IMG/VR virus record: IMGVR_UViG_3300026488_000013
Location: 64,001 to 128,000 of that record
Length of the DNA stretch: 64,000 nt
DNA from: a virus
Reading direction: 5' to 3' (one strand)
Positions 49,643 through 64,000 of this stretch are shown piece by piece. Position 1 is the first letter of the stretch; every line of letters starts with the position of its first letter. A program made the translations under genes and the position numbers. The notes below the pieces were generated by a model, which was not told the DNA's origin, ran no database searches, and saw nothing but the letters and a program-made list of their open reading frames with translations.

Positions 49643-52135
49643 TTACATAAATATCTTATCAAATGCACTTTCAACATATGTATCTTTTGTTTCAGTTAAC
49701 ATATTTCTAAGTGTCCGCTTTGAAGGTTCGTATAGAAATGCCAATATAGGAGATAATCTTTCAGATGCCTTGGGTAAGGGCAACTTCACAAACTTTGACA
49801 AATCTAATTCGTGGAGCTGGACATTATTATTGTGAATAAAGTATCTTAAGGTTCTATTTATATCGTCAACATCTTGCTCCGTTTTTGATTCGTTAACTTC
49901 TGTATCATTATCCAATTCTATATCTTCTTCTTGTTCTATTTCATTTTCTTCTTTCAAGAACCATAACGCACTCAATATAGTTTCAATCATTACAGATTTA
50001 ATAAGTTCTATCCCCAATAAAGTATCTGTTATTTCATCATATGCAGTAAATATATCTTTATCTATCATTTTGGATTTTATTATTTTTTCAATATTAACAA
50101 TTTTTGTAACAATATCGTCGTTTACCAATTTACCATTTCCTTTTACTTTAAATTTTATTATTCCATTTTCACCTATCTTAACGTCTATTAATTCTATTCT
50201 ATAATCATACCCATTCTCCTCTAGGAATTTGTTTACTTCATTTATCAACTGTTGAGGGGTATATTCTTTATTATGGATTTCGATATACCCGTCATCGGTA
50301 TTAAGTTCGATTTTGTATTTTTCTAATATTTCGTTGGGTATCTTGATTATCGCACGGCCGGATGTATGGAATGTGCGTAATATAAGTTGAGTAAACCTTT
50401 CAGTTATATATTGGATTGATAACATTCCCAGCTGTTTTGATTTTATGGATTCGTATCCTCCGCATTTTTTACATACTTTAAATCCAGGAAGTTTGCAGGT
50501 TATAGGGCTTCTTAATAGTATTTCTTTACCAATTATACTTTCGTAGTTATTTTTTGTTATTAAAATCTCTCTATTTAATTCTTCATCCTTGTAATATCTT
50601 CCTATCAAGGATTTGGCATGAACTTCATTTTTTACCTTTATTTTAAAATATTTATCAGTCCCGCAATCTTCCGTATCTTCATCAAACATTATAAATGATA
50701 GATTGTATAAACCTGTCCTTTGGAGAAATCCAGAGCGTGGCGTTTGAACCATTTTGTCAATCTCTCCTTTTCTTGCACCGTGTGCAGACATAAATAATTC
50801 TTTTTTTGTTAAACCTTTATTTAATGGATGTCTTACCGGTTCGGATTGAACTATATTTTTTGCATCCGCAAGAAAACCTTTCGTATATATTGTCTGTTCA
50901 ATTTGGTCTCTGGACGCTCTGGCCCCCGATTGATATATTTTCCAAAGTTCCGTATCTTTCTTTTCCATTTCTTTAAAAACTATTTCGGAATATTTATTTA
51001 AAAGATATAACCCAAATATTGGCTCGTTCGGAATGTTGTTTAATATCTTTTCCACTTCATCTTTGTTGGGGGTTATATAATCGTCCAACGTTAATTTTGG
51101 TGCAATTTTCGAATACGAAAATTCTGATAATACTAACATTATTTCGTGAAACAAATCTAAATATCTCCTACCAAATTTTTCCAAATCTTTATCTTCATAA
51201 AGTTTTTCTTCCTTGTTTAAATATTCGATTATTACTTCGTTCACAATTCTTACCTTTTTCTTATTTATATCAGTTTCCTTTAGATAAAGCTTTTTATTAA
51301 ACACTCTATAATTCAAGTAAACCAACCCATACGGTAATGTTATATTTTGATTTTTTATTCTTACTGCATACTTTCTTACATCCTCTTTAAACAGAATAAT
51401 TGGGTTGGGTTTAAAATCCTCAATCGAATCTATTTCAATTATTTTTTCAATATATTTCGTTGTCGATAACTGATTTAGTGCATATAAATATTCATGGCGT
51501 AATTTGTGTAAAAAATCATCATTTCTGTGGTATCTCAAGAATGTGGTTGCATGAATTCTCTTATTAAATATGTCTTGTTTTGCTTCAACAGTATTTATTG
51601 CATACTGTGCCATTGTGTCCTGCACAACTATATCATTTGCTACAAATGTGAAATTCTTATCCAGTGTCATGTCATATGCTGTTCCTTTTCCAGAATATCT
51701 TATTTCAATATCAGTTATAGGTATCCGTTTTACTTTATTATTTGGTAAAACTTTGATAAAGTATAGGGATTTCTTAATTTGGAAAGGCATATTTAAAATT
51801 TCTACAGGAGATATTTTTTCAAACTCGTCCAGCTCTATATTATAAACAATCAGCGAGTGGTCTCCAGATGCTTTAAATGGTTGAAATCTATTTCGTTTAT
51901 CTTTTATTTCGTAAAGGTCTAAGTTTTCATGGACAGAGAACTCAATTATTTTTGCTCTTTCAATTTTTCCAGTTTCCATATTAAGCGATTTTGTAAACAT
52001 ATCTTTCATAGGTTTATATTTGATTACTTTGACTCCATCGTTTCTTACATATTCATCAATTTTGATAAAAAATTCTTCTAGAAATTCTTTAACACCAACC
52101 ATTTTCTTCATAATTCTATCATATCCATAAATCAA
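49643..52135 (-). CDS. rpoC: RNA polymerase beta' C-terminal half fused to an N-terminal split-intein C-fragment (likely start ATG 52111)
   Basis: After the intein: TMAQY (follows NADFDGD in RpoC), SGARAS, GLT..LFMSAHGARKG..D...TPRSGFLQR (bridge helix), EDCGT, RSPITC..VCKKC, ERFTQLILRTFHTSG (trigger loop). Confidence 0.92.
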   Translation of the reverse strand: MIYGYDRIMKKMVGVKEFLEEFFIKIDEYVRNDGVKVIKYKPMKDMFTKSLNMETGKIERAKIIEFSVHENLDLYEIKDKRNRFQPFKASGDHSLIVYNIELDEFEKISPVEILNMPFQIKKSLYFIKVLPNNKVKRIPITDIEIRYSGKGTAYDMTLDKNFTFVANDIVVQDTMAQYAINTVEAKQDIFNKRIHATTFLRYHRNDDFLHKLRHEYLYALNQLSTTKYIEKIIEIDSIEDFKPNPIILFKEDVRKYAVRIKNQNITLPYGLVYLNYRVFNKKLYLKETDINKKKVRIVNEVIIEYLNKEEKLYEDKDLEKFGRRYLDLFHEIMLVLSEFSYSKIAPKLTLDDYITPNKDEVEKILNNIPNEPIFGLYLLNKYSEIVFKEMEKKDTELWKIYQSGARASRDQIEQTIYTKGFLADAKNIVQSEPVRHPLNKGLTKKELFMSAHGARKGEIDKMVQTPRSGFLQRTGLYNLSFIMFDEDTEDCGTDKYFKIKVKNEVHAKSLIGRYYKDEELNREILITKNNYESIIGKEILLRSPITCKLPGFKVCKKCGGYESIKSKQLGMLSIQYITERFTQLILRTFHTSGRAIIKIPNEILEKYKIELNTDDGYIEIHNKEYTPQQLINEVNKFLEENGYDYRIELIDVKIGENGIIKFKVKGNGKLVNDDIVTKIVNIEKIIKSKMIDKDIFTAYDEITDTLLGIELIKSVMIETILSALWFLKEENEIEQEEDIELDNDTEVNESKTEQDVDDINRTLRYFIHNNNVQLHELDLSKFVKLPLPKASERLSPILAFLYEPSKRTLRNMLTETKDTYVESAFDKIFM
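51617..52135 (-). mobile_element. Split intein C-fragment (large, lacks block A; ends Gln-Asp, Thr at +1)
   Basis: SLNMETGKIERAKI, block B ASGDHSL, block F AYDMTLDKNFTFVAND, block G IVVQD|T; an in-frame TGA lies upstream. Confidence 0.8.
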
Positions 52136-58052: not shown

Positions 58053-58460
58053 ATGAGTTTGGAAGACATTGAGATAGCAAAGAAAATCTGGGAAACTAAA
58101 AAAATAAAAGAAAATAAAGTAATAGTTGATAAAAATGGAGAGAAATATGAAATTAGAGTAGTTTTGATAGATAAAAACAATGATGGTTTATGGAAATTTG
58201 CTATAGAATGGAGAAGAATAGATAAAAAACCACAGTGGATAGATGAATGGAGTTATTTCAAAATATTGGAAATAGGCCCGAACAGCTATATAGTATCAGA
58301 ATCAAACATATACGATGATTGCTCAATGCCATATAAAAATGATTTAGAAAAATATTTATCAGAAGCAGATAAAAAACAACTAGAAAAATTATTAGAAGAC
58401 AAAAAAGAACTGGAAGAAATGTTTGACACCGTATGGAGAGAAATAACAGCAATATCTTAA
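58053..58460 (+). CDS. Hypothetical protein (135 aa)
   Basis: First gene to the right of the repeat region; purine-rich coding bias. Confidence 0.6.
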   Translation: MSLEDIEIAKKIWETKKIKENKVIVDKNGEKYEIRVVLIDKNNDGLWKFAIEWRRIDKKPQWIDEWSYFKILEIGPNSYIVSESNIYDDCSMPYKNDLEKYLSEADKKQLEKLLEDKKELEEMFDTVWREITAIS

Positions 58461-58549
58461 TTTCGCTTTTTTCATTTTTTTTTTGTTCCACATGTGTAGA
58501 GTTTTCAGAAAAGGAATGTTTTAATAATTTCCTCCTGTGGAGGGCAGCA

Positions 58550-59683
58550 ATGAACAGAATTAAGAAAAGATTATTTAATCCAGTGGGCAATGATTTTGCA
58601 GATAATCAATCCCCGATATATTTTGGAACTAGTCCCTTAGTAAATGAACCTACCGGGCTTTTTACAATATTTGAACCTCGTGATAGAGATATATACGAAT
58701 TTGTTACGTTACAAAAACAAAGATTTTGGCGAGCGGATGATTACCCAATAGATGCTATTAAAGAAGGGTTTACCCAATTAGACGAAAATAATAAAAAAAT
58801 TTTCGAATACACTCTATCTTTCTTAAGCTTCTTGGATAGTGTTCAAGTAGCAAATATATCAGACTTAAATGTAGTATATAACATGCCCGAGTATAGGTTA
58901 TGGGGAACTGTTCATCAATACTTTGAACATGAACATAGTATTGCTTATTCTAATATATTGGTTGGATTATTTAATAATAATACTGACGAAATTAAGCGAA
59001 TTTTTTATCTAGCTAAAGACCATCCGACACTCAAGAAAAGGAATGAATTGATAGCTAATAATTACCAGAAGTTGTTTGATATTTTCTGGGAAGGTATTAA
59101 GAATGTTTCGGTAGATGATTATGCACGTGCTTTAACGTATGTCTTAGCCGGCACGTATGCAATGGAAGCAATTACGTTTTATATGGGCTTTAAAATAATA
59201 GAATTTTACCAGTTCAAATATGGAATACTTCCCATGACCAACAAGATGATTTCTGAGATAAAAGCGGACGAACTCTTCCATGTTAAGGTCATGGCAACAA
59301 TAATTAATAGAGTTAAACCTTTTATACTCGAACATATCTCTAATGAGGAATTCGACGAAATAGTTAGAAATACATTGAAAGCATACTATGAATCTGATTT
59401 AGAGTTTTATAGAGATATTTTGCAGAGAAATGAATTTGGGATAACAGATAAACAGATTTTTGATTACATAACTTTCTTGACTAATAGGCGTGCTGCCCTG
59501 ATAGGTTTAAAAGACATAGGTCTCCCGAATGTAGATAACCCGTTCAAAGAAATAGACAATTTATTTGGATATTTAGAATCTCATGATAATTCTAATAGAA
59601 AAGATTCTTTCTTTGAATCATCAAGTGCTGCATACATCGCCCAGAAAATAGATGATTCAGCGTTGGACGATTTTGACTTTTGA
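58550..59683 (+). CDS. nrdB: Ribonucleotide reductase class I beta subunit
   Basis: RFW, FLDSVQ, EHEHSIAY (radical Tyr), MEAITFY, DELFH, DSFFE..AY; GGAGG RBS at 58539 supports ATG 58550. Confidence 0.92.
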   Translation: MNRIKKRLFNPVGNDFADNQSPIYFGTSPLVNEPTGLFTIFEPRDRDIYEFVTLQKQRFWRADDYPIDAIKEGFTQLDENNKKIFEYTLSFLSFLDSVQVANISDLNVVYNMPEYRLWGTVHQYFEHEHSIAYSNILVGLFNNNTDEIKRIFYLAKDHPTLKKRNELIANNYQKLFDIFWEGIKNVSVDDYARALTYVLAGTYAMEAITFYMGFKIIEFYQFKYGILPMTNKMISEIKADELFHVKVMATIINRVKPFILEHISNEEFDEIVRNTLKAYYESDLEFYRDILQRNEFGITDKQIFDYITFLTNRRAALIGLKDIGLPNVDNPFKEIDNLFGYLESHDNSNRKDSFFESSSAAYIAQKIDDSALDDFDF

Positions 59684-59902: not shown

Positions 59903-60613
59903 TCACATTTTATACTTTAAATTTCTTATTGCATCGATTAATTCTATTACAAAACTCAAATTTCTATAGTATGGAACCTCTAGGATTTTATCTAATTCGC
60001 CATCTTTAATATCATATCCAAATATTTTATTTATTGCTCTTTTTATTATATATTTGGCTATATTGCTGCTTGTTATATCATCCTCATACTCGAATTCATA
60101 TATTATATCTTTATAATTTTCAATTTCATTTACTAGAATATCTTTCAAAATCTCTATAATTCTGTTATAAAATCTTTCATCTATAATTCTCTTCATCAAT
60201 GATTTTATTTTGAAAATTCCCTCGGTATGAGGGGATAATAATATTTTTGTAATATTTGTAGGAATATTTCCGAATTTTCTGTTAAAATACTCTTCAATCA
60301 AATACTCGAACTCTTTTCTAAGATACTCATTTTCAACCCAATTTATGTATTTGAGTTCCACTATAAGCTCCATTATATCTTTTCCATTTTTATCTTCTAT
60401 AATTTCTTTATCAGATATGATATAAATGTTAAAGTCATTGACTATTGGTGTGTCCTTTTCTATATTTATTATTGGCTCTAAATATATAGCATATATCTTT
60501 GTATTATTATCTGTTTTATATTTTTTATCTATTTTTGTCACGATTTTGACGGTTCTAGCCATCATAACCGATATATTTCCGTAGAAATATGAAAAAAAAT
60601 TAATATAAAGCAT
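59903..60613 (-). CDS. Hypothetical protein (start probably ~60564)
   Basis: ORF with no polymerase motif C. Confidence 0.55.
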   Translation of the reverse strand: MLYINFFSYFYGNISVMMARTVKIVTKIDKKYKTDNNTKIYAIYLEPIINIEKDTPIVNDFNIYIISDKEIIEDKNGKDIMELIVELKYINWVENEYLRKEFEYLIEEYFNRKFGNIPTNITKILLSPHTEGIFKIKSLMKRIIDERFYNRIIEILKDILVNEIENYKDIIYEFEYEDDITSSNIAKYIIKRAINKIFGYDIKDGELDKILEVPYYRNLSFVIELIDAIRNLKYKM

Positions 60614-61760
60614 TTATTCTCTTCTCCAGGTTTTTGTTTAAATATTTCTGAACACCGGCCTGGGCGAATTTAATCATGAATTTTGAATTCATTGTTATTG
60701 GACTTCCTATATTTTTATCGTTTAGGATAAATGTAGGAACAATATTTACACCATATGATACCGCATTAAGTTGAGGTTTTACAACCTTTCCTTGTAGTTT
60801 ATCATAATATGAATATTTGAAGTTATCCCCTTTCTCATACCAATATGCGGAGGTTTTCTTTAGTTGTTTCCGCAAACTCATATAATCATCTATAAATCCA
60901 ACCATTATACCTACTTGGTTGTCGTGTTTTTCAAATAGTGCCCCACTAAATGTTAGAACATATTTTTTCAAATATTTCTCTATAAATTCATCGATAGTTA
61001 TTTCCCTGATTTTAATCTTATTACTGGTCGGATTATCAACTACTATTACTCTAAACTTTTCCCATTCTTTATCACTTTTTATACCTAAATATAGTTTTAG
61101 GTATTCTTTATATTTTCTAATATTACCCTTCGCTACAATCCAAAAGTATATCAATTTATTTGTTTCATCATCCTTATATGACAAAAGATGTGTATAGTTT
61201 TCTAGAAATGGTATTAATCTGGTTTTTAATACAATGTAATCCTCACCGTTCATTATTCCATCTAAAGTATATTCGGCAAAAACATACATGAGTTCATCCA
61301 ATATTTTTAAAGTGAATTTTAGATTGTTTTCTATAATCTCTTTTTTCTTGTTTGGCTTATACCATTCTACAAACGATAAAATTAGTCGATTAAATGATTC
61401 TTTAAACGAATTTTTAAGATTTAAAATCTTAGATTTTAAGACCGTTTTCTTCTTAGGTTTATCTGTGTTGACAAATTCTTGCACATATTTAGAGAACTTC
61501 CTTAATGCATCGATAAGCTTATACGTTTGGGGAGGATATACTCTGGCCCGAAGAGTAGTGAAGTCTATATTAAACATTTTTACTGTAGAAGGATACATGG
61601 ATGTGTTGTGAACAAGAATATAATAATCAGATTTTGGGTCTTTGGCAAAAAATCTTTCAGTATCTTCTACAGAAATATCATATACATAATCATCCTCAAT
61701 TTCTATAATTTCTATGCTTTCAATTTCGTCAATAAACCAAACTCTTCTTCTTTCTATCAT
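60600..61760 (-). CDS. Family B DNA polymerase middle fragment (motifs A-B) with N-terminal split-intein C-fragment
   Basis: HN|TSMYPS..FNI (motif A remainder), SGALF, motif B KPQLNAVSYG; no DTDS; RBS AGGGG. Confidence 0.88.
   Translation of the reverse strand: MIERRRVWFIDEIESIEIIEIEDDYVYDISVEDTERFFAKDPKSDYYILVHNTSMYPSTVKMFNIDFTTLRARVYPPQTYKLIDALRKFSKYVQEFVNTDKPKKKTVLKSKILNLKNSFKESFNRLILSFVEWYKPNKKKEIIENNLKFTLKILDELMYVFAEYTLDGIMNGEDYIVLKTRLIPFLENYTHLLSYKDDETNKLIYFWIVAKGNIRKYKEYLKLYLGIKSDKEWEKFRVIVVDNPTSNKIKIREITIDEFIEKYLKKYVLTFSGALFEKHDNQVGIMVGFIDDYMSLRKQLKKTSAYWYEKGDNFKYSYYDKLQGKVVKPQLNAVSYGVNIVPTFILNDKNIGSPITMNSKFMIKFAQAGVQKYLNKNLEKRINALY
61605..61760 (-). mobile_element. Split intein C-fragment (52 aa, His-Asn end, Thr at +1)
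   Basis: IESIEII...VYDISVEDTERFFA...ILVHN|T: blocks F and G. Confidence 0.92.
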
Positions 61761-61800
61761 TTGTGCCCCCTTTCTCTTTTTTTTAAAAAATGGAAATTAT

Positions 61801-62421
61801 CTATACATTAAAGCCCGGTATTTTTATTCCGAAATCATCTATTAATATATCTAATCCGCTCCATTCGTAGAAATCATAAACATTATGTCTTTTCGGAGGT
61901 GGCTGTTTATGAATTATATAAAGTGCTGCGTCAGTCATAAGACCTGCAGCATTATTTGCAATATTTATTAATTCATCCTGAACCGTTGTTGATGTTAAAA
62001 ATGACATTAAATTATCATATGCGATGTTACCAACCAACTTGTCGTTTTGCTCATCTACCTGGAAGCAATTATCCAAATCACAGTCAACATATTTTGTATA
62101 AAATGATATTTTTTTTATTACTGCGCAAGTCTCGGTAGGGGGTAAAAATAATTTATCTCTAAAATACGGCATTGTTTCGAACATATTATGGACGAATTGA
62201 CTGTAGTAACCAAACAGTGTAGTAAATATTCTTTGTTTAAAAACAGATGCTTCTATAAATTTATAAGAATTATAAGCAGATAAAATGTTGTTTATTAATG
62301 AGTCTAAATCCTTTTGGTATTTGGGAGCTATTTTCATCCAATAATTTCTAAGTTCGGGTATGAACTTATTTTTAAAATTTCTAAGCAAGTGAATATCTTT
62401 AATATTTATATCACAAGCCAT
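61801..62421 (-). CDS. Hypothetical protein (206 aa)
   Basis: ORF with GAGG RBS; no intein block A at its C-terminus. Confidence 0.55.
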   Translation of the reverse strand: MACDINIKDIHLLRNFKNKFIPELRNYWMKIAPKYQKDLDSLINNILSAYNSYKFIEASVFKQRIFTTLFGYYSQFVHNMFETMPYFRDKLFLPPTETCAVIKKISFYTKYVDCDLDNCFQVDEQNDKLVGNIAYDNLMSFLTSTTVQDELINIANNAAGLMTDAALYIIHKQPPPKRHNVYDFYEWSGLDILIDDFGIKIPGFNV

Positions 62422-62533
62422 TTATAAAACCTCACGAAAAAAAATGTCGCCGGATGCTCATTATTTTAGTGATAGGGCGGTTGACTGATTTAAAATGAAA
62501 AAAATATTAAAATTAAAGTTAAGAGATAATTTA

Positions 62534-63565
62534 TTATTCTATGTAAAAATCTATCATCATTCTTCTTATTTTATCTTCTATATCTGCCGGTAATTTATTC
62601 AAATAGTCGTGTATTCTATAATCCAACATTAATACCATTTTCTCGAGTTCTTTAGTATTATTTGTTTTAGCTATTTCTATGAGTTTGTTTATAATATCAT
62701 CGCTATCTAATTCGATATATTTCTCCAATTCCTCGATATTATCTATTGTTTCTTTTTTACATTCATTTATTTGCTCATTTACATTATCCTCACATTTGGT
62801 TATTTCTTCTTTTAAATTATCCAACTGTTTTATTATCTTATCAAACGGATACTCGATATATTCTAAATCATGTTTCATATATTCCACTTCTTTTCTTCTT
62901 ATCATCGCATTTATATATTTTTTAATCAATCTGCTTATGTTGGCGTCTATTTTTATAATACTTTTCAATTTGAACACATATGTATTTCTATATTTCGAGA
63001 TTTCTTTATCGGGTATTTCTAATTTCTTGTATACAGTATAATATTTGGTCGAATATACTCCCGATGGACCGTATACGGGGTCGTTCACCTCATATTCCAA
63101 TATATGTTTGGTTTTTGTCTCTTTTGTATATCCAACATATTTATCATCAATATGGAAGAGTATAAAATACCCTTGGTTTTTATTTCCTATTATTATTTCA
63201 AATATTGCAATGTCTTTTATATCCTTATTCTTAATTTCATTATATATATCTTTCAAAGCTTCTATAGGTAGGCAATCTATATATCTTAAATATTCATCTA
63301 AATGGATTCTCCAGTCCCATTCATATATTTGTTCTAATATTTCATTTTCAAAATCTTCTATTTCTTTTATCTCATGTTCGAAATATTTAATAATTTTTTT
63401 TATATTCTTTTTATCATTTTCGTGTTTTTCTTTTAATTGTTCTATTTCTTTCTTTATATGTTTAATTTTATCCACCAATTTATCTATATCGCCAGAAATA
63501 TACAATTCTTCTATCGTATTTTTTATAACTTCTAATTCCCTAAGAATTAGTTCTTTTTCCATCAT
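62534..63565 (-). CDS. Hypothetical coiled-coil protein (343 aa)
   Basis: E/K/I-rich helices flanking a beta-rich core. Confidence 0.55.
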   Translation of the reverse strand: MMEKELILRELEVIKNTIEELYISGDIDKLVDKIKHIKKEIEQLKEKHENDKKNIKKIIKYFEHEIKEIEDFENEILEQIYEWDWRIHLDEYLRYIDCLPIEALKDIYNEIKNKDIKDIAIFEIIIGNKNQGYFILFHIDDKYVGYTKETKTKHILEYEVNDPVYGPSGVYSTKYYTVYKKLEIPDKEISKYRNTYVFKLKSIIKIDANISRLIKKYINAMIRRKEVEYMKHDLEYIEYPFDKIIKQLDNLKEEITKCEDNVNEQINECKKETIDNIEELEKYIELDSDDIINKLIEIAKTNNTKELEKMVLMLDYRIHDYLNKLPADIEDKIRRMMIDFYIE

Positions 63566-63636
63566 AGTGCGTTAATATCTATACAAACTAAAAAAGATAA
63601 AAAAACATATACGAAAAACAAAAACACGGAAAAAAC

Positions 63637-63963
63637 TTATTTTTTCTCCATTAACAATTCTATATTATCTATTCGCCTAAATATTATTCTAAGATTTTTA
63701 TCTATCACGAAATCTCTAATTTTATATCTTCTTTTAATATCCTTTAATACAACTTCGGGCGGGAGTTTTTTGGTATAAAGTGTGCTCTTTATTCTATATC
63801 CGCCCCACACTATGTCATTATCGTATGATTCAACTATGAATCTCCCATATGCAAATTTTTTATTTATTTTTTCAAAATCTTTATCTGACAGTCCTAATTC
63901 TTCTTTTAACGCCTTTTCTATTTCAGGGATAATATCTTTTAGTCTATATTTCGGTATAAACAC
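63637..63963 (-). CDS. Hypothetical protein (108 aa)
   Basis: ORF with typical codon bias. Confidence 0.5.
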   Translation of the reverse strand: MFIPKYRLKDIIPEIEKALKEELGLSDKDFEKINKKFAYGRFIVESYDNDIVWGGYRIKSTLYTKKLPPEVVLKDIKRRYKIRDFVIDKNLRIIFRRIDNIELLMEKK

Positions 63964-64000
63964 ATTTGTTTTAATATATATTGTGTTTTCTTTTGGTATG

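Follow-up and report, generated by a model that had tools for sequence, protein, structure and literature searches.

How a DNA polymerase could be built from a gene that begins inside an intein and ends before the last catalytic motif is the question raised by a locus in the virus record IMGVR_UViG_3300026488_000013 of IMG/VR. This record is linear and 167,050 bp long, with an estimated CheckV completeness of about 60%, and the stretch analysed here (the window, 64,000 nucleotides with a G+C content of 25-33%) comprises its bases 64001-128000. The record codes for pieces of a multisubunit RNA polymerase, an SNF2 helicase, a DnaB-like helicase and a ribonucleotide reductase small subunit, and its source is therefore a large uncultured phage. 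Near the right edge of the window lies an open reading frame (ORF) of 386 amino acids (aa) (P0001; Table 1) that couples the C-terminal part of an intein (IntC) to the middle of a family B DNA polymerase (PolB). An earlier annotation made from the letters alone, here called the sequence-only reading, had described a 52-aa IntC (…ILVHN) joined to TSMYPS, and had proposed that the catalytic Asp of motif A must come from another gene by protein trans-splicing. We located the missing parts on two nearby genes, and we judge it probable (about 0.85) that the three genes yield a three-chain PolB in which one junction is predicted to be trans-spliced and the other to be non-covalent.

A polymerase gene that begins inside an intein

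Profile searches bear out the proposed composition of the ORF in the window. Residues 1-52 match the C-terminal end of the Pfam model Intein_splicing (PF14890; positions 121-155 of 155, E 4e-4, below the cut-off when taken alone) and the NCBIfam model TIGR01443 intein_Cterm (19.7 bits, cut-off 15.6). They end in His-Asn (ILVHN52) and are followed by T53, the +1 nucleophile, and then by SMYPS. Residues 53-380 match positions 405-568 of 856 in the PHROG 262 'DNA polymerase' profile (E 1.7e-12), and a profile built from the middle extein and 19 relatives matches the motif B region of solved PolBs in the PDB (E 1e-13). Profiles were required for this, as phmmer with the whole ORF returned only chance matches from the PDB. 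With the middle piece as query, tblastn gave no match in 50,697 phage records, and a pattern search of viral contigs with this piece alone found none.

The ORF has an own strong Shine-Dalgarno-like ribosome-binding site (GAGAAAGGGGG) followed by an ATG, which indicates, as read from the sequence, that the IntC gene begins translation independently. Neither DTDS nor an N-terminal intein part is present in its 386 aa. The neighbours had been said to supply none of the missing parts, and indeed no PolB or intein signal was found in the flanking ORFs of 206 aa and 236 aa.

The missing parts lie on two genes just upstream

A PHROG 262 search of the whole record yielded two further places outside the window, which correspond to the exonuclease-intein gene and the DTDS gene that the sequence-only reading had called for. 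These partner genes are located 3.6 kb and 6.8 kb upstream of the IntC gene, just past the right edge of the window. Their absence had been named as a sign of a pseudogene, and both are present. All three PolB genes fall within 10.5 kb of one strand (-), so the description of the pieces as 'unlinked' is not supported.

The first partner gene encodes 508 aa and supplies the N-terminal portion of the polymerase. Its residues 1-403 constitute the N-extein, which carries Exo I-III (DIE, FDFPY and YNIVD), ends in …GLIMDFDQ, and matches both PHROG 262 positions 105-395 and Pfam DNA_pol_B_exo1. D402, the Asp that motif A contributes to catalysis, stands two residues ahead of the splice junction and thus resides on a separate gene as proposed. 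This gene ends in a matching N-terminal intein part (IntN; residues 404-508, 105 aa), which starts with SLTYDQLILI and ends in …GDKLILI. Ser404, directly after …MDFDQ, is Ser1 of the intein in block A and aligns with Ser1 of contiguous relatives, and the block B TxxH motif (T73-E-N-H76 in KVTENHSIF) is kept in all aligned relatives. IntN exceeds the cut-offs of two intein models, namely PF14890 (positions 7-94; 39.4 bits versus 35.8) and TIGR01445 (32.2 bits versus 24.5). In phage records, the N-half gave a single weak match.

The second partner gene (P0003, 840 aa) matches PHROG 262 positions 567-835 and carries motif C (YSDTDS at 515-520, with D518 and D520) and KKRY at 602, after which the thumb follows. 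There is no intein at its junction, in agreement with the expectation of a third, non-spliced chain bearing motif C. Thus, the three genes cover PHROG 262 positions 105-395, 405-568 and 567-835, or 105-835 overall, with no gap and no real overlap, and motifs Exo I-III, A, B, C and KKRY are all intact though spread over three genes. A single-sequence AlphaFold2 model of the 840-aa chain was unusable (mean predicted local distance difference test score, pLDDT, of 35.5), and a word-index search with the thumb part returned one distant full-length PolB only. Relatives of this piece were taken from neighbouring genes in the loci of other PolBs.

The same 840-aa chain includes a uracil-DNA glycosylase (UDG) superfamily domain at residues ~141-308 (Pfam, 62.9 bits), which is flanked by two stretches without a domain assignment, residues 1-140 and, ahead of the motif C region, residues 310-500. 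NCBIfam models for type-4 UDGs give 47-54 bits, far under their cut-offs of 125-250; UDG motif A reads GINPG rather than GEAPG, the HPS motif is present, assignment of the Fe-S cysteines is tentative, and family 4 is the closest. In one relative (L028:8879-11452), it is the large subunit (858 aa) that bears a UDG domain, at its N-terminus. With the domain on the thumb subunit in one case and on the large subunit in the other, the association between UDG and PolB recurs in this clade.

A cysteine-free split intein interrupts motif A

We aligned the two intein halves with contiguous inteins of 151-178 aa that occupy the same site in relatives (P0010 and, at 151-160 aa, P0008, P0011 and an ORF of L013). 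Together, IntN and IntC tile the whole contiguous mini-intein domain with no residues missing, and the break falls at the canonical endonuclease-loop position. The catalytic positions Ser1, TxxH, HN and Thr+1 are all kept, blocks F and G are present, and there is no Cys in either half. The halves are encoded by two genes that start and stop independently of each other, and the 3.6 kb that separates these genes holds four ORFs. The element is classified by these features as a canonical-site, cysteine-free, naturally split class-1 mini-intein, whose fold and splicing are predicted.

The two halves have opposite net charges, +10 for IntN and -9 for IntC, a property linked to association of split inteins by capture and collapse. 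Four of the five split forms (this phage, P0004, P0005 and P0022) have a C-part charge of -9 to -12 and the fifth (P0069) has +7, a small sample, while the corresponding part of contiguous relatives ranges from +2 to -5. The predicted spliced junction, DFDQTSMYPS, is the reading found in the intein-free relative P0009 (728 aa, 46% identical; NIDFDQTSMYPS). With an intein inserted two residues past the catalytic D402, the two chains would be expected to lack activity until they are spliced.

Relatives share the split and the break between motifs B and C

The same split occurs in independent contigs. An N-terminal piece ending in IntN is encoded in L094 (72% identity), where the upstream synteny is also the same, with a C-terminal piece that is 66% identical, a GNAT gene and a 228-aa ORF. 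IntC-initial genes are found in L008, from a hydrothermal-vent metagenome, and in P0005 (57% identity), and in L008 a homologue of the 206-aa ORF precedes the IntC gene as it does here. The catalytic intein residues are kept across these relatives at 57-72% identity. Since the independent contigs keep the split, misassembly is unlikely.

The second break, between motifs B and C, has a far wider distribution. An exhaustive phmmer search recovered 71 homologues of the large-subunit part, most of which are 650-930 aa long, contain the exonuclease domain and motifs A and B, and have the same end point as P0001. DTDS occurs in none of the 71 within the matched large-subunit part. About 60 relatives stop at the end point of P0001, most of them intein-free, which does not support a view of this break as part of a splicing scheme. 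The gene for the C-terminal piece lies directly upstream of the N-terminal or exonuclease gene in L013, L018, L020, L022-L025 and L058, and the order is the same in L094; the C-terminal piece of L022 has 322 aa only and begins ~33 aa before DTDS. The break and the inverted order, with the thumb gene first, are clade-wide and not special to this genome. When compared with RB69 gp43, the profile of the C-terminal piece aligns to residues 617-773 and that of the middle piece reaches ~608. These alignments therefore place the break just ahead of the β-strand that holds the motif C aspartates (~RB69 608-616).

A different arrangement is seen in a relative's protein, P0012 (357 aa), which lacks an intein and begins 17 aa before motif A (…LIVDYDQTSMYPS). 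Either the gene call is truncated or there may be an intein-less break at motif A.

Intein turnover and other mobile elements

The survey of split and fused alleles that had been recommended found all three states, absent, contiguous and split, at the motif A site. On a maximum-likelihood tree of 36 large-subunit exteins, the contiguous motif A inteins have a scattered distribution that requires 9 changes for 11 rows and does not improve on shuffled labels, and several sister pairs differ only by intein presence. Three split forms share a supported subclade (92/98) with the contiguous P0008 and the intein-free P0009, such that a single origin of the split is possible. Scattered presence, together with the same junction in intein-free relatives, is as expected of a selfish element, and the distribution fits selfish-element turnover rather than a designed scheme.

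Other mobile elements reside in the polymerase genes of the relatives. Inteins at the motif C site (YGD/…HN/TDS) are carried by thumb subunits at L018:7820-9820, L058:7424-9448 and L013:1-1290, and the one in L058 holds a LAGLIDADG domain. The gene at L025:2058-3047 opens with a 45-aa C-intein followed by SSYNYF, and is predicted to represent a split intein at motif C. A group I intron was found at L006:26-245 (+) and also in L007 (RF00028, 74.1 bits, E 5.7e-19), directly upstream of a PolB ORF that starts in the middle of the exonuclease domain, and both contigs end just upstream. That ORF, which ends beyond motif B, contains a contiguous motif A intein.

A second, differently split intein with Thr at +1 had been reported in the RNA polymerase beta' gene of this phage, and we recovered it. 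The C-terminal part of beta' (window 49643-52135, -) starts with ~173 aa of intein (Pfam positions 18-153 of 155) that ends in …DIVVQD, with Gln-Asp instead of His-Asn, before TMAQY…. The N-terminal part (genome 37468-39411, -), 74 kb from the other half, ends in NADYDGD plus a 24-aa tail beginning with Ser. Judging by these parts, the arrangement fits an atypically split intein with a short N-half and a long C-half. Another beta'-like ORF outside the window (genome 7333-9354, -) reads …TLGAD-C…(~160 aa)…C-DGN…, which suggests that the metal-binding motif is interrupted by an insert; a search of the genome with the Pfam intein profile did not pick up this ORF.

Proposed assembly and alternative explanations

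A probable route to the active enzyme can be outlined from these parts. The 508-aa chain, comprising the exonuclease, the palm up to D402-Q403 and IntN, would meet the 386-aa chain through the oppositely charged intein halves. Once folded as a single HINT domain, these halves would catalyse class-1 protein trans-splicing, with Ser1 and Thr+1 as oxygen nucleophiles together with the terminal Asn52. The product would be a large subunit of 737 aa reading …MDFDQ-TSMYPS…. This subunit would then bind the C-terminal ~340 aa of the 840-aa chain without a covalent join, and the motif C hairpin (D518, D520), KKRY and thumb of that chain would complete the palm. As for its history, a palm-C/thumb gene upstream of an exonuclease/palm-A/fingers gene would be the ancestral two-gene layout of the clade, which a mobile mini-intein would have invaded at motif A. 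In the lineage of this phage, inserted DNA, now four genes, would subsequently have broken the intein at the endonuclease loop.

The non-covalent junction was modelled by complex prediction for the middle extein (alignment A2) and residues 486-840 of P0003 (A3), using our own alignments. The pair scored 0.75 versus 0.54 for the best control, and the mark applied is reached by 58 of 80 solved complexes and by 2 of 110 mismatched pairs. At least 76% of contacts recur between runs, the partner has a pLDDT of at least 75, and the modelled contact brings together the motif A strand (P0001 54-64) and the motif C hairpin (P0003 512-527). Solved structures of intact PolBs exist, however, and the score may owe more to resemblance to these than to an interaction of the two chains modelled here.

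Some observations can be read differently. If the intein halves no longer splice, the product could be three separate chains that only dock non-covalently, or the genes could be a decaying pseudogene set. Intein-less split PolBs do work, as shown by the T4-like gp43A and gp43B, an active pair that co-purifies (PMC2988022), poor splicing in vitro is on record for some natural split inteins (PMC11923092), and splicing is here a prediction from sequence. However, a loss of splicing is improbable given that all class-1 catalytic positions are kept in this phage and its relatives, that the three ORFs are open with intact PolB motifs, and that the active site would probably be obstructed by a 157-aa HINT domain folded at a distance of two residues from D402. 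An artefact of assembly, or a repair of the split at the RNA level by introns or trans-splicing, is scarcely credible. The record is a metagenomic assembly and a group I intron does interrupt the PolB gene of the relative L006/L007, but in three independent contigs from other samples the half-genes recur, each delimited by a start and a stop of its own, and the IntC gene has its own initiation signals. An Rfam search at a permissive threshold (window 55-64 kb and genome 128-140 kb, so that genome 119-140 kb is covered) found no RNA family and hence no intron. Moreover, the strand order of C-terminal, N-terminal and middle piece cannot yield N-middle-C by cis splicing, and intein halves are themselves the signature of joining at the protein level.

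The sequence-only reading had gone further in proposing a deliberate, genome-wide scheme in which orthogonal split inteins of PolB and beta' gate the timing of replication and transcription or enforce compatibility between co-infecting relatives. Two differently split inteins do adjoin the metal-binding Asp motifs of both polymerases (105/52 aa in PolB; a 24-aa tail and ~173 aa in beta'), and their unlike split points make cross-reaction unlikely. Yet the scatter of the PolB-site intein among close relatives and the shared junction of intein-free ones speak against such a scheme, which we consider very improbable. The motif C inteins and the group I intron of relatives are the usual picture of selfish elements in essential phage genes; moreover, the three PolB genes share a strand and a stretch of 10.5 kb, and a promoter scan that performed no better than shuffles gave no sign of differential expression. 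We also doubt, nearly as strongly, the speculation that both split inteins form an orthogonal pair through which the polymerases depend on co-expressed cognate halves, which would serve as a post-translational checkpoint or would keep out recombinants with co-infecting relatives and prevent these from exploiting the phage, with the UDG-thumb subunit forming part of an undescribed heterodimeric replicase.

Several points nevertheless weigh against the three-chain PolB that we favour. We infer splicing, assembly and activity alike. The candidate for the NX motif His of Ser1 inteins, a residue described as following Lys or Arg (PMC10189870), is His53 of IntN, which is preceded by Gln. The margin of the complex score over controls is 0.21 against a mark of 0.20, as obtained with our own alignments. 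Since the record is fragmentary, a second, intact polymerase elsewhere is possible. Finally, no homing endonuclease that could account for the breakage of the intein was detected in the four ORFs between its halves.

Gene neighbourhood

The coordinates of the PolB parts and of the four ORFs that separate the intein halves are collected in Table 1. We searched these four ORFs with Pfam and PHROGs for homing endonuclease domains, a check that had been recommended for the surroundings of the partner genes, and did not find HNH, GIY-YIG, LAGLIDADG, Vsr or PD-(D/E)XK domains. In the 412-aa ORF, a Thy1/ThyX match is limited to the last ~134 aa (profile positions 61-184 of 191), and the first 276 aa are outside the match; a separate 382-aa ORF in L008 resembles residues 27-315 of this protein. 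An Atlas search with the 206-aa ORF returned nothing usable. The genes for the C-terminal and N-terminal pieces are separated by two ORFs, a GNAT acetyltransferase and an ORF of 253 aa.

Table 1. Positions of the PolB gene pieces, the intein parts and the ORFs between them. Coordinates refer to the window unless marked as genome.
Feature	Position	Strand	Remarks
N-terminal PolB gene (exonuclease and IntN)	genome 129378-130904 (L005:1381-2904), outside window	(-)	508 aa
Third PolB gene (C-terminal piece, P0003)	genome 132563-135085 (L005:4566-7085), outside window	(-)	840 aa
IntC-middle PolB ORF (P0001)	60600-61760	(-)	386 aa
C-intein (IntC)	61605..61760	(-)	52 aa, MIERRR…YVYDISVEDTERFF…ILVHN; blocks F and G
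Middle PolB extein	60603..61604	(-)	334 aa, opens with Thr+1
Motif A remainder TSMYPS	61587-61604	(-)	start of extein
Motif B KPQLNAVSYG (K328…G337)	60750-60779	(-)	preceded by fingers region
Stop codon of IntC gene	60600-60602	(-)	extein ends ~49 aa past motif B
Shine-Dalgarno-like GAGAAAGGGGG	61766..61776	(-)	6 nt before ATG of IntC gene; strong; read from sequence
Spacer between intein genes, in-window part	61801..64000	(-)	ORF calls
206-aa ORF	61801-62421	(-)	spacer, adjoins IntC gene
343-aa ORF	62534-63565	(-)	spacer, coiled-coil-like
142-aa ORF	from 63637, crosses window end	(-)	spacer
412-aa ORF	genome 128119-129357, just past window	(-)	spacer, between intein halves

Outside the spacer, a 202-aa ORF (genome 136223-136831, -) that lies 1.1 kb upstream of the thumb-subunit gene matches a phage PD-(D/E)XK endonuclease family (PF24608, 36 bits), and is the sole nuclease-like gene near the PolB cluster. 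The ribonucleotide reductase small-subunit gene (window 58433-59683, +) is on the strand opposite to its neighbours, and its product has an extra N-terminal stretch of ~75 aa ahead of the Pfam match. A scan for sigma-70 promoters found fewer sites than in shuffles and was uninformative, and terminator-like sites numbered 11 versus 4 expected.

Significance and comparison with known systems

The locus offers a natural case in which one enzyme core would be rebuilt in two ways, by covalent trans-splicing at motif A and by non-covalent assembly before motif C. It also introduces a clade of uncultured large phages in which PolB is divided between two genes and the one for the thumb precedes the other; gene callers or PolB surveys designed for a single long ORF will overlook or mis-annotate the polymerase of this clade. 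The motif A and motif C sites, each of which can be empty or hold an intein in contiguous or split form, provide a compact natural series for intein breakage. Cysteine-free, naturally split inteins with a canonical break are rare tools (PMC11923092, PMC12707363), and this intein together with P0004, P0005, P0022 and P0079 adds candidates with strongly charge-segregated halves.

Among known inteins, that of Aes123 PolB1 from T4-like Aeromonas phages, a natural cysteine-free split intein with an N-half of 120 aa and a C-half of 39 aa (PMC11923092; PDB 9HTH), provides a close parallel. Both are class-1, cysteine-free inteins of a phage PolB with a canonical endonuclease-loop split and charge-segregated halves. 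However, the halves are 105 and 52 aa here, and the host protein belongs to a two-subunit PolB clade with a third chain. PDB searches with either intein half did not return 9HTH, such that no close sequence relation is detectable. PolB16 OarG, from a metagenomic PolB, is atypically split after 15 aa (PMC10189870; PDB 8cpn/8cpo). The intein described here resembles it in the use of Ser1 and Thr(Ser)+1, in a weak block F similarity to IntC (E 0.03), and in the His at the NX position, which is present in IntN and in seven of eight contiguous relatives, but it is split at the canonical site. It is the beta' intein of this genome, and not the PolB intein, that resembles the atypical PolB16 type.

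PolB halves on separate genes that carry a split intein have precedents as well. In Nanoarchaeum equitans, two PolB genes are joined by a split intein (Choi et al. 2006, as cited in PMC2677866), and in the Pseudomonas jumbo phage MIJ3 the halves of a putative split PolB intein are separated by an HNH endonuclease gene (PMC6892783). The present locus is unlike MIJ3 in that four endonuclease-free ORFs lie between the halves and a third, non-spliced chain is needed. The 'fractured genes' of environmental phages, in which split intein halves on adjacent genes are explained by DNA inserted at the endonuclease site (Dassa et al. 2009, PMC2677866), likewise place intein halves on nearby genes of essential enzymes, in their case of replication or nucleotide metabolism. 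The free-standing homing endonuclease that defines them was looked for between the halves and not found here, and by analogy the present state fits a later stage of a fractured gene, after endonuclease loss.

The non-covalent junction is comparable with the intein-less split PolBs of T4-like phages, in which gp43A and gp43B co-purify and are active (Petrov, Karam; PMC2988022), and of Methanothermobacter (PolB1/PolB2; Kelman 1999, as cited in PMC2677866), where the PolB catalytic core likewise comes from two non-covalent chains. In contrast with gp43A/gp43B, the thumb gene comes first here and the break falls before motif C. An identity with the T4-like break was considered and rejected, as Acj61 gp43A (503 aa) terminates between motifs A and B; likewise, an assignment to the phiKZ-type 'group 1' PolBs (PMC7824862) was rejected because that type lacks the fused exonuclease present here. 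The nearest cultured PolB relatives are T4-like, at ~27% identity. A survey of PolB diversity (PMC7544198) makes no mention of split, intein-containing or permuted forms, and we have not found a description of the inverted two-gene layout combined with a UDG domain on the thumb chain. Phage cysteine-free split PolB inteins and non-covalent split PolBs are each already known as mechanisms, and it is their combination that is unusual.

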